Shown: positions 12,026 through 23,573 of the stretch, in pieces
How positions within the stretch are numbered: position 1 is the stretch's first letter
How the letters are laid out: the number at the start of each line of letters is the position of its first letter
Assembly (NCBI GenBank): GCA_049976845.1
Contig: JBMFHL010000008.1
Coordinates: 1 to 29,429 of the forward strand
Length of the DNA: 29,429 nt
From: Candidatus Micrarchaeia archaeon
Lineage (GTDB): Archaea; Micrarchaeota; Micrarchaeia; Micrarchaeales; CABMGC01
Direction: 5' to 3'
Notes under the pieces: model-generated
Databases searched by the model: none
Told to the model about the DNA's origin: nothing
The model's input: the letters and a program-made list of their open reading frames with translations, nothing else
Translations under genes and position numbers: made by a program

Positions 12026-12565
12026 TCAGGTATATTTGACAGTGAATGACGCTACCTTTTGTACTGTGTTACCGTATCCTGGGATCGTGTAGTTAAGCCA
12101 TATAAAGCCGTAGAATGCATCGCCAAGCGCCCCAGTGGCAACGCCTCCTGCTTCATAGCAGTTGGTTTCAAACATATTCCCGCTGCCGCTATAGACAACA
12201 ATGCCGTTTGAAAGTGCATTGTTCGGATATGCATTATAAGGATAGTAAGCAGGATTAGAGGTTACATATATATTGCCATAAGCCGGCAGGCTGCCTGTCG
12301 CATTCTGCGAGGCGGAGCATGCAATACCTTTCACGGTTATTGGTCCGCCTGTTGCCTGTGCAAGATATATACTCATGGCGCCTGTAGTGTTTATTGAAAA
12401 CAACGAGCACGAAAAACCAGGTTCCGGCGTGCAAGAAACGGGCGCCGCAGTCGGATTCAGGACACCCACTTTATATATTACAGCGACAGCTATCACGATT
12501 ATTATTATTGCTATTCCGTAAGACATTAGGAAATCAACGGAAGCTTGCGCTTTCAAACGCATCAT
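12026..12565 (-). CDS. pilin-like protein with a class III signal peptide
   Basis: N-terminus RLKA|QASVDFLMSYG followed by a hydrophobic helix; Cys-containing, beta-rich, N/S/T/G-rich ectodomain. Confidence 0.72.
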   Translation of the reverse strand: MMRLKAQASVDFLMSYGIAIIIIVIAVAVIYKVGVLNPTAAPVSCTPEPGFSCSLFSINTTGAMSIYLAQATGGPITVKGIACSASQNATGSLPAYGNIYVTSNPAYYPYNAYPNNALSNGIVVYSGSGNMFETNCYEAGGVATGALGDAFYGFIWLNYTIPGYGNTVQKVASFTVKYT

Positions 12566-13176
12566 CTTGCCTTTATCTCCATTTTGGCCTCGAAATCAGA
12601 GATATTGTAGTTGAATTCCTCATTAGACTTTATTATACCTTTCTCTTTCAGGTATTCCCTAGCAAGAAGATAATATACAACTGCAAGCGATCTCCTTCCC
12701 TTGTTGTTGCATGGTATTATAAGGTCAACGAATTTTACCCAGTTGTCTGTGTCGCACAGCGCAATGACCGGTATGCCTGTTTTGCTTGCCTCTTTTATCG
12801 CCTGCCTCTCATTCCTTGTATCGCTGATTAAAACTATGCCAGGCTCGATGAAATCCTTCCTGTTAGGATTTGTGAAGATCCCAGGCATAACGCGACCCTG
12901 CATAAACTTCATTTTTGTTATCTCTGCAAATTTTGAAGCTGCTGAAATTGCATAAATTCTAGAAGCGGTAACTACTACCTCTTTTTCATCGTATCTCGCA
13001 AGAGTCTTAGCAGCAATCTTTATCCTATTGTCTATTACTGGAAGGTCAAGAAGGTAAAGCCCATCTTCCCTAACCTTGTATATAAACTTCTTCATTCCTG
13101 GAGTTTTAATCTTAGTGCCTATATGCACGCCAGCTTCCAAATATGTCGCTTGATCTATAAGTAATTCATTGCCCAT
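12562..13176 (-). CDS. rps2: 30S ribosomal protein S2 (uS2)
   Basis: Motifs YLEAGVHIGTK, PGIFTNP, IPVIALCDTDN, IPCNNKGRRSL. Confidence 0.97.
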   Translation of the reverse strand: MGNELLIDQATYLEAGVHIGTKIKTPGMKKFIYKVREDGLYLLDLPVIDNRIKIAAKTLARYDEKEVVVTASRIYAISAASKFAEITKMKFMQGRVMPGIFTNPNRKDFIEPGIVLISDTRNERQAIKEASKTGIPVIALCDTDNWVKFVDLIIPCNNKGRRSLAVVYYLLAREYLKEKGIIKSNEEFNYNISDFEAKMEIKAR

Positions 13177-13193
13177 ACAAACACCATATATTT

Positions 13194-13291
13194 CGGGGTC
13201 GCCGAGATTTTCATTCTCATTTTGAATTCCCGACGTTCTCGGGTCATGTGCCCCCTAAGCACAGAGCCTGACCAGGCTAGCAGACGACCCC
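13194..13291 (-). tRNA. tRNA-Pro(AGG) with two introns: 53/54 (11 nt, 13227-13237) and 59/60 (13 nt, 13208-13220)
   Basis: Acceptor GGGGTCG/CGACCCC; D-loop AGCCTGGTCA; anticodon arm TGTGC-TTAGGGG-GCACA; T-stem CCGAG/CTCGG. Removing both inserts restores TTCAAAT. It occupies the usual tRNA-Pro slot after rpoN. Confidence 0.88.
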
Positions 13292-13339: not shown

Positions 13340-13537
13340 TCATTTCCTTCCGTACTCTATTACTTCATCTATGAGGTCTACATGCCCTACAAGCATTCTC
13401 CTGCAGCAATATCTTTTAACACCAAGGTCATCAAGTGCCTTCTCGGGGTCTTCTCCTTTGTCAACCTTATCTTTGAATTTCTCCCATTTGTTTCCTATCA
13501 CTTGGCCGCAGGAAAAACATCTTACTGGTATCATCAT
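13340..13537 (-). CDS. rpo10: DNA-directed RNA polymerase subunit N (Rpo10)
   Basis: [10 protein letters not shown]...[14 protein letters not shown]. Confidence 0.97.
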
Positions 13538-14882: not shown

Positions 14883-14982
14883 TGCGGGGGGTGAGATTTG
14901 AACTCACGCAAGCTCTAAAGCTACAGGAATTTTGAAAAAATTCCTCAATCCTGCGCGTTTGACCAAGCTCCGCCACCCCCGC
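14883..14982 (-). tRNA. tRNA-Leu(GAG) with a 13-nt canonical 37/38 intron (14930-14942)
   Basis: Acceptor GCGGGGG/CCCCCGC with A73; long variable arm; anticodon stem CAGGA/TCCTG. The intron AATTTTTTCAAAA forms a TTGA/TCAA helix with GG^A and AA^T cut sites. Confidence 0.93.
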
Positions 14983-21619: not shown

Positions 21620-21709
21620 CCTATCGCAATCTTTATTATATCTTCTATTTATATAAACTTATTTTGAATAATCTTTCAATGCTCTGTGCCAATGCGGCAA
21701 TCACATCAA

Positions 21710-21784
21710 GGGCCCGTAACTCAGTTTGGCCAGAGTGGGAGGCTTTTAACCTCTAAGTCAGGGGTTCAAATCCCCTCGGGCCCG
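21710..21784 (+). tRNA. tRNA-Lys(TTT), intronless
   Basis: Acceptor GGGCCCG/CGGGCCC with G73; GGAGG-CTTTTAA-CCTCT; AGGGG-TTCAAAT-CCCCT. Confidence 0.96.
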
Positions 21785-21811
21785 AATAATAAAAATGAAT
21801 GGTGTTGCGAT

Positions 21812-23299
21812 ATGGTTGATGAATTCAGGCTGGCAAAGCTAAAATCCCTTAGAGAAATAGGCATTAATCCTTATCCTTACAATTATGTCCAGACTGCACA
21901 TGCAACCGAGATAAAGCAGGACTTCGAAGGCTTCAATAACAAACAGGTAAGCATTGCTGGCAGGGCAATAAGCATGCGTGAAATGGGCAAGCTATACTTT
22001 ATAGACATTTTAGATGGCACTGGCAAGATACAAGTGTTAGTCAGGAGTGACAAAGCCAGTGCAGAAGCAATGAAAATACTTAAGCTGGCAGATGTAGGGG
22101 ACATACTAGGCGTGGGCGGAACCGTAATAAAGACTAAAAGAGGCGAGATAACAGTAGAAGCTACAAATATAGTAATGCTTGCAAAATCTTTACGCGTCCT
22201 CCCAGAAAAATTTCACGGACTTACAGATACAGAGCTAAGATACAGGAAGCGCTACCTTGACTTTATAGCAAATCCAGAAGTAAAAAATTTTTTCATCACG
22301 AGAGCAAAAATACTAAAGTATGTGAGAGACTTCCTAGATTACCACGGGTACATTGAATTTGAAACACCTGTATTGCAGCCCACATATGGTGGTGCGAATG
22401 CAAAACCTTTCATAACATACTACAATGCATTGGATTCAAAAGTGTATCTTAGAGTCGCAGACGAGCTATATCTCAAAAGGCTTATAATAGGCGGATTTGA
22501 AAAGGTATATGAAGTTTCAAAAGACTTCAGAAATGAAGATATAGATTCTACCCATAACCCTGAGTTCACGCAAGTAGAGTTCTACGAGGCATACAAAGAT
22601 TACAACTATCTCATGGAGTTTACCGAGGAAATGCTTAATGGCATGGTGAAAAGTCTCTTCAATTCGGAGAAGGTAGTGTATAAAGGTGCAGAACTAGATT
22701 TCAAAAGACCTTTCGAAAGACTATACTGGGTAGATGAGCTGCGCAAAAAAAGTGGCATAGACGTTTCAAAGCTCACTGACGAGGAAGCCGAAAAGATCGC
22801 AGAAAAAGAGAACCTCCCTGTTCCAATAAAGAACGCTTACCATGTTGCAGATGCACTTTTTGACAAATATATACAGCCGAACCTATTCAATCCAACGTTT
22901 GTGACCGATTTTCCCTCTTATATGTGCCCTCTTACAAAGGATAAAAGAGGCAACAGCATGCTGAGCGAGCGCTTTGAATTATACTTAGCCGGCAAAGAGG
23001 TTGCAAACTGCTATTCAGAGCTTACAGATCCAATAGAGCAGAGCAAGAAGTTTAGTGAACAGGAAGAAGAGCGCAAGCATGGCGACGAAGAAGCGCCACC
23101 GCCAGATTCGGATTTCATAGAAGCGATAGAGTATGGAATGCCCCCTACGGCTGGCATAGGTGTGAGCATAGATAGGATAGCAATGCTGCTTACAGGTAAC
23201 GATTCTATCAAAGAGGTTATAGCATTCCCTGCAGTCAAACCAATCCCAAAGAATTTGCAAAAGCCCAAAGAGGCAAAAGGAAAAGAAGATAAAAAGTAG
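21812..23299 (+). CDS. lysS: lysine--tRNA ligase, class II
   Basis: LPEKFHGL, RYRKRYLD, motif 2 FRNEDID..HNPEFT, motif 3 YGMPPTAGIGVSIDR. The likely start is ATG 21812 after GGTG, because the ORF-track extension runs through the tRNA. Confidence 0.96.
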   Translation: MVDEFRLAKLKSLREIGINPYPYNYVQTAHATEIKQDFEGFNNKQVSIAGRAISMREMGKLYFIDILDGTGKIQVLVRSDKASAEAMKILKLADVGDILGVGGTVIKTKRGEITVEATNIVMLAKSLRVLPEKFHGLTDTELRYRKRYLDFIANPEVKNFFITRAKILKYVRDFLDYHGYIEFETPVLQPTYGGANAKPFITYYNALDSKVYLRVADELYLKRLIIGGFEKVYEVSKDFRNEDIDSTHNPEFTQVEFYEAYKDYNYLMEFTEEMLNGMVKSLFNSEKVVYKGAELDFKRPFERLYWVDELRKKSGIDVSKLTDEEAEKIAEKENLPVPIKNAYHVADALFDKYIQPNLFNPTFVTDFPSYMCPLTKDKRGNSMLSERFELYLAGKEVANCYSELTDPIEQSKKFSEQEEERKHGDEEAPPPDSDFIEAIEYGMPPTAGIGVSIDRIAMLLTGNDSIKEVIAFPAVKPIPKNLQKPKEAKGKEDKK

Positions 23300-23462: not shown

Positions 23463-23573
23463 GCCAGGGTGGCGGAATCCGGTAACGCGTACGCCTGGAG
23501 AAAGATCCTGCAAGCGTATGGCTCTCTGAGCCTTCTGGGTTCAAAAGACTTTCTGAAAATCCCAGCCCTGGCG
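23463..23573 (+). tRNA. tRNA-Ser(GGA) with two introns: 37/38 (12 nt, 23501-23512) and 59/60 (14 nt, 23546-23559)
   Basis: Acceptor GCCAGGG/CCCTGGC with G73; anticodon stem TACGC/GCGTA; long variable arm GGCTC/GAGCC; T-stem CTGGG/CCCAG. Intron removal restores the loops CTGGAGA and TTCAAAT. Confidence 0.92.

Follow-up and report, generated by a model that had tools for sequence, protein, structure and literature searches.

How can a tRNA mature when two introns interrupt one T arm and only six nucleotides of exon separate them? The question is raised by a tRNA-Pro(AGG) gene in the window analysed here, a stretch of 29,429 nucleotides from a Candidatus Micrarchaeia archaeon, where the gene sits in the cluster rpoD-rpl18e-rpl13-rps9-rpoN-rps2. 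On the minus strand the precursor's acceptor stem has 7 bp, its D arm is weak and an anticodon stem of 5 bp encloses TTAGGGG; 24 extra bases enlarge the T arm. The original prediction divided these bases into two mini-introns with mutually exclusive splicing motifs, and held that the first must be cut and ligated before the motif of the second can form. The elements on which that reading was built (TGA, CCCG, both introns, TTCAAA and CTCGG) were all located where it had placed them, and the parsed locus is as follows.

13194..13291, minus strand: tRNA-Pro(AGG) gene, 98 nt with its two introns and 74 nt when mature, CCA not encoded (from ARAGORN on the spliced form and from orthologs)
13238..13291, minus strand: exon 1, tRNA positions 1-53 (acceptor 5' strand, weak D arm, anticodon arm, variable loop, T-stem 5' strand)
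13254..13256, minus strand: anticodon AGG (A34), replacing the GGG of the sister family
13240..13246, minus strand: 5' side of the intron-1 motif, with TGA (13246-13244) as outer helix h1 and CCCG (13243-13240) as central helix H1
13238/13237, minus strand: 5' cut of intron 1, G53^A
13227..13237, minus strand: intron 1, AACGTCGGGAA, 11 nt, position 53/54; its CGGG (13232-13229) pairs with CCCG in a bulge-helix-loop (hBH)
13221..13226, minus strand: exon 2, TTCAAA, 6 nt, T-loop positions 54-59; TCA serves h1 and TTCA serves central helix H2
13208..13220, minus strand: intron 2, ATGAGAATGAAAA, 13 nt, position 59/60; its TGAA (13213-13210) pairs with TTCA
13194..13207, minus strand: exon 3 (T60 at 13207, T-stem 3' strand CTCGG at 13206-13202, acceptor 3' strand, G73)
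13340..13537, minus strand: rpoN, RNA polymerase subunit N, upstream neighbour (NF003089, E 2.4e-34)
12562..13176, minus strand: rps2, ribosomal protein uS2, downstream neighbour (TIGR01012, E 7.9e-76)

When both introns are deleted in silico the remainder forms a normal cloverleaf that ARAGORN calls tRNA-Pro(agg), and its spliced T arm agrees at 20/20 bases with that of the intronless tRNA-Pro(CGG) of the same genome. The expectation that standard scanners would miss or miscall the unspliced gene was borne out: ARAGORN called three other tRNAs in the window and missed this one, as it did when run on the whole genome with intron search, and Rfam RF00005 missed it at the gathering threshold. 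A sigma-70 promoter scan, with a model unsuited to archaea, gave no match. All but three of 50 loci found by way of rps2 are recorded under Micrarchaeota or its subgroups.

To place the junctions, every single and double deletion was enumerated across the 45-nt T-arm region. No single deletion yields a canonical T arm, and a single large insertion cut at other junctions was rejected on that ground. Six double deletions do yield one; all share the 11-nt intron 1 (13237-13227) and differ only in how the 13-nt intron 2 slides through a run of A. Motif geometry selects among these sliding solutions and thus places intron 2 at 59/60. In the parse each central helix has 4 bp and each cut follows the second base of a 3-nt bulge, and the inner helix h' of intron 2 is a single U-A pair closing a GAGA loop. 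Several short 59/60 introns have a GNRA-type loop closed by one U-A pair.

A scan for T-arm introns matched five genes here, against zero when the genome was reversed, which argues that such introns are not chance. Four of the five genes have a 59/60 intron only, and tRNA-Pro(AGG) is the only match with an intron at 53/54. The 59/60 intron of a tRNA-Ala(GGC) at 2372-2471 of the window (plus strand) is 28 nt long; neither ARAGORN nor Rfam finds this gene, which ARAGORN calls once the intron is deleted. The central helix there is TTCG/CGAA rather than TTCA/TGAA, both strands having changed. A further tRNA, at 23463-23573 (plus strand), has a long variable arm and G73 and is most likely Ser(GGA); one intron of 12 nt lies in its anticodon loop and another of 14 nt at 59/60. 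Both scanners miss it, and if the 59/60 intron is deleted ARAGORN calls Ala(ggc) in a different register. Two arginine tRNA genes (TCT and CCT by eye) carry 59/60 introns of 16 and 20 nt elsewhere in the genome (G000, contig C1 near 94638, minus strand, and contig C3 near 5028, plus strand). A tRNA-Leu(GAG) with a 13-nt anticodon-loop intron lies between rpoD and rpl18e (14883-14982, minus strand) and is miscalled Glu(TTC) by ARAGORN run without intron search. Finally, a tRNA-Lys(TTT) (21710-21784, plus strand) sits right at the head of the gene for a class II lysyl-tRNA synthetase (21686-23299, plus strand), whose listed ORF start overlaps it; the true start is probably downstream.

Orthologs were identified by a pattern combining anticodon and T arm, which matched 102 of 118 host-family genomes and 78 of 129 sister-family genomes, its misses including incomplete genomes and over-long introns (one of 31 bases). 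An 11-base pattern run over the host family was set aside as too short, with matches at background level. Four DNA sequencing runs were likewise left out of the evidence, their contigs coming from more distant relatives only. Scored by eye, the 180 Micrarchaeales orthologs comprise 71 with both introns, 97 with only the 59/60 intron, 9 with only the 53/54 intron and 3 with none. Also by eye, these states number 27, 65, 9 and 1 in the host family and 44, 32, 0 and 2 in the sister family. Because orthologs with one or no intron exist, the junctions are fixed. A scripted set of 150 loci, of which 132 were parsed, gave 103 distinct genes; 40 of its regions were hand-picked, mostly intron-1 carriers, so that it is enriched for intron 1. 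At the predicted register the central helix is fully paired in 61/64 genes for intron 1 and 91/92 for intron 2, with at most one at registers slid by 1-2 bases. The two motifs and the 6-nt exon hold up exactly as they had been written. The inner stem begins right after the 3-nt bulge in 49/60 and 81/86 distinct introns respectively, above all 2000 shuffles (kin are not independent), and the 3' end of intron 1 reads NGGGAA in 60/60 distinct orthologous introns. Exons are near-invariant across orthologs, whereas intron interiors are diverse in sequence and in length (11-23 bases for intron 1, 11-32 for intron 2) yet keep the motifs. Position 52 is A in 80/80 genes with intron 1 and C or G in 16 of 66 host-family genes without it (by eye, in four genera, kin not being independent). 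Altogether we regard it as virtually certain that the gene is real, essential-looking and correctly parsed, junctions included.

A uS2 tree of 73 rows (quick search, 36 of its 70 inner branches being open) calls for 13 changes of state in intron 1 as against 5 in intron 2, and it does not reveal their direction, gain or loss. We can reasonably infer that the 53/54 intron is a later, repeated gain atop an older 59/60 intron. The 97:9 excess of orthologs with only the 59/60 intron over those with only the 53/54 intron might be taken for a relic of the order of splicing; we rejected it as evidence, as neither the mechanism nor the direction of intron change is established.

The order of splicing was approached by partition-function folding, with acceptor and anticodon stems fixed, of 55 of the 56 double-intron genes (one is without its 5' end). 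The nearest-neighbour energies used take no account of Mg2+, the enzyme, tertiary structure or folding during transcription. Because the 53/54 intron falls where the T stem meets the TTCA strand, the precursor cannot hold a strict 59/60 motif without a break; with intron 1 present, the would-be outer helix of that motif has only 2 of 5 pairs, the substitutes that the 3' end of intron 1 provides, in 56/56 double-intron genes. For the window's precursor the computed probabilities are 0.99 for H1, 0.007 for the full intron-1 motif and 0.003 for H2, and the full intron-2 motif rises from 3e-9 in the precursor to 0.046 with intron 1 removed. Over the 55 genes, removal of intron 1 raises full motif 2 by a median of 1.3e4 (about 13,000-fold), whereas removal of intron 2 raises motif 1 by a median of 2.3. 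Full motif 1 is a minor state of the precursors (median 0.0014), and it exceeds full motif 2 there in 51/55 genes at 37 C and 52/55 at 55 C; four of the 55 genes (L120 and L149-L151) show the opposite ranking. By computation, then, full motif 2 becomes formable only after intron 1 is removed, and the direction originally proposed, 53/54 first, is the one that folding favours.

The accompanying claim that the two folds compete for TCA and CCG holds in part: the outer helices clash, but the central helices can coexist, with H1 and H2 formed together at a median of 0.089 over the 55 genes and up to 0.6 (0.003 in the window's gene). The TGA/TCA pairing proposed as outer helix of the first motif is likewise present, but it amounts to 3 pairs in 24/64 intron-1 genes and 2 pairs in 40/64, including all 33 of GGG type, and its G45 and A46 are set by the tRNA itself, intron or no intron. 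Covariation across orthologs, put forward as a check on the prediction, gave nothing for h1: neither G45 nor A46 varies, and position 44 is independent of intron presence.

The host genome encodes a predicted endonuclease of the relaxed-motif type together with the ligase RtcB. Its EndA, of 388 aa, is a full-length match (residues 13-388, E 7e-153) to 4FZ2, the structure of the ARMAN-2 epsilon2 enzyme, and an RtcB gene is present (E 5e-168). In vitro, the ARMAN-2 EndA was described as cutting 59/60 introns of the relaxed hBH type (PMC3239211). Because the folding gain is so asymmetric, and because the ARMAN-2 enzyme cuts hBH, the type of motif that intron 1 offers, removal of the 53/54 intron first is the likely route. 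We picture a sequence in which the 53/54 intron, lying at the joint of outer helix (T stem) and central helix, would break the 59/60 motif; the precursor would fold the CCCG/CGGG hairpin, offer it as a relaxed bulge-helix-loop and be cut there first; the T stem could then form, the 59/60 motif would appear and the second cut would follow. For the product to be of use, the first ligation would have to precede the second cut, since otherwise the 6-nt exon would be freed, and this would be a kinetic requirement rather than a strict folding one. Overall we think it probable that this is a working Micrarchaeota tRNA-Pro gene spliced in two rounds, 53/54 then 59/60, by an epsilon2 endonuclease and RtcB.

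The strongest competitor, which we consider unlikely, is a free or loosely biased order in which the central hairpins stand side by side, the broad-specificity epsilon2 enzyme cuts either relaxed motif first and each cut is ligated in turn. The coexistence of H1 and H2 and the two-pair outer helix of many genes speak for it, as does an account of the ARMAN-2 enzyme that describes it as tolerant of both BHB and BHL substrates (PMC12397907). So do the nine genomes with intron 1 only: if intron loss goes via partly spliced RNA, then a partly spliced intermediate that keeps 53/54 exists, and these genomes are a point against a fixed order. A tolerant enzyme might also cut 59/60 first where the inner stem of intron 2 has 5-6 bp, as in 5/56 double-intron genes. 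However, in the window's own precursor H2, at 0.003, would stand without an outer helix and with at most one inner pair, and the relaxed substrate described in vitro retained its outer helix (hBH) (PMC3239211).

The prediction went furthest in stating that the first intron must be ligated before the second motif can form, and here it was overstated. In a nicked model, with intron 1 cut out and the ends unligated, motif 2 forms at a median of 0.084, and in the ligated form at 0.042; these models do not bear out a strict requirement that ligation come before refolding. Since the nicked form pairs, ligation would be needed to retain the 6-nt exon, not for motif pairing. This result also gives some footing to a scheme in which the nicked RNA refolds and is recut before any ligation, the 6-nt exon being held by the enzyme complex or by tertiary contacts and then joined at both ends, as across orthologs the 59/60 motif pairs as readily nicked as ligated. 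We nevertheless judge this scheme quite improbable. In the window's gene the motif is about ninefold lower nicked than ligated (0.005 vs 0.046), and a free hexanucleotide would be expected to be lost: the mature T loop gives positions 54-59 no Watson-Crick anchor.

Two rounds of splicing with the 53/54 intron removed first thus remain the preferred reading, and their product would be a tRNA with an unusual anticodon. AGG was found in 102/102 matched host-family genomes, which disposes of a sequencing error, and GGG in 78/78 matched sister-family genomes. The A34 gene is the counterpart, at the same locus, of the sister-family GGG gene. In an isoacceptor survey of 46 family genomes, each at least 88% complete, 44 yielded 82 other tRNA-Pro matches; every one was CGG or TGG, and Pro(GGG) was not among them. 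In this family tRNA-Pro(AGG) takes the place of tRNA-Pro(GGG). The uS2 tree places the AGG genes together on one side of a branch supported at SH-aLRT 97. When 301 genomes sampled from the phylum were scanned, the AGG pattern matched 53/53 other family members and 15 outsiders, of which 4 contain an ARAGORN-confirmed intronless tRNA-Pro(AGG) (genomes G175, G391, G412 and G419); the matches in the other 11 are without a stem by eye. Of these four genomes, G175 belongs to the sister family, and G391, G412 and G419 to one distant family, which suggests further independent origins of A34 in proline tRNA. The intronless genes lie at L184:728-800, L197:14009-14083, L198:7066-7139 and L199:1846-1919 and have different bodies.

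Leucine retains a GAG anticodon in the host genome, and A34 in the mature tRNA-Pro is probably unmodified. No TadA-like gene tracks the family: a search gave PF14437 matches in 12 of the 46 family genomes and none in the host genome, figures to be read with the genomes being incomplete and an unrelated enzyme possible; the single PF00383 match in the genome is a free cytidine deaminase, and a PF02137 search gave no match in any control genome, which makes it uninformative. Codon usage offers at most a hint of weak CCC reading by the A34 tRNA. Relative to other four-codon boxes, the CCC vs CCU log-odds averages -0.93 over 13 genomes of the AGG family and -0.62 over 13 of the GGG family (p = 0.051; samples of 20-40 kb, the whole genome for the host only, kin not independent), and of four other AGG genomes two show little depletion (-0.27 and -0.20). 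A Salmonella Pro(AGG) mutant has been reported harmless, as cited in a preprint whose own survey found A34 near-absent in archaea, at 3 among 10,517 archaeal tRNAs (both from bioRxiv 10.64898/2026.05.15.725136).

That the locus is a pseudogene or assembly artefact with unspliced insertions, as its weak D stem (2 Watson-Crick pairs) might suggest, is highly improbable given its near-invariant exons beside variable intron interiors that keep their motifs, its standing as the only reader found for CCU and CCC, and the weak D arm also described for the ARMAN-2 tRNA-Pro (PMC3239211). Beyond the order of removal, we offer a wider proposal tentatively, as one that may well fail: the 53/54 intron would have inserted repeatedly into the motif of a 59/60 intron older than itself, forcing a cycle of cutting, ligation, refolding and cutting, in which the 53/54 nick or the epsilon2-RtcB hand-over would act as a checkpoint protecting the 6-nt exon; to read CCU and CCC the whole family would depend on the resulting tRNA, with its A34 unmodified. 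If the checkpoint reading is true, the four intron states across Micrarchaeales are a ready test set for endonuclease-ligase coupling. The practical value of the locus lies in its very small substrate, a T-arm region of 45 nt, on which one could ask if an archaeal endonuclease holds back until ligation is done, and the relevant enzyme type (epsilon2) has already been purified and its structure solved. Genes invisible to ARAGORN and Rfam can moreover hide A34 anticodons from surveys, and annotators are described as overlooking many such introns in Asgard archaea (bioRxiv 10.64898/2026.10.13.758758).

As a discovery the locus carries little weight, since its layout and the notion that introns come out in order have both been published; our literature search, thin on subscription journals, brought up nothing on Pro(AGG) in Micrarchaeota or on the order in which this precursor is spliced. 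The closest known system is the pre-tRNA-Pro(GGG) of Ca. Micrarchaeum acidiphilum ARMAN-2, given with introns at 53/54 and 59/60 in the legend of Fig. 1C of Fujishima et al. 2011 (PMC3239211). The two precursors share the proline isotype, both intron positions, the phylum and the epsilon2 endonuclease type, but the anticodon is GGG there and AGG here and family-wide. The ARMAN-2 motifs are called strict hBHBh', whereas intron 1 of the host is without an inner stem (hBH). In the available portions of that account removal order is absent, and the in vitro tests described concern tRNA-Ile and tRNA-Cys, not this precursor.

The family-wide A34 is rarer, and has a precedent in the Parvarchaeum lineages ARMAN-4 and -5, for which tRNA-Pro(AGG) and tRNA-Leu(AAG) are described (PMC3239211); Ferroplasma acidarmanus is described with tRNA-Leu(AAG) (PMC6000648). 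These cases resemble ours in having an A34 isoacceptor instead of G34 in an archaeon. Unlike in those archaea, A34 is here fixed across a Micrarchaeota family (53/53 sampled genomes) and resides in an intron-split gene that scanners miss. For ordered removal the precedents are nested multi-intron archaeal pre-tRNAs (Sugahara 2007/2008; Tocchini-Valentini 2009), in which the BHB of the last intron is said to form only after the other has been processed (PMC3978253, PMC3728597). As predicted by folding for the host gene, one motif awaits removal of the other intron. Those reports reportedly concern mainly crenarchaeal genes with other enzyme types. What sets the present gene apart from them is that both of its introns are minimal, lie in one T arm and are independently present or absent across one order.
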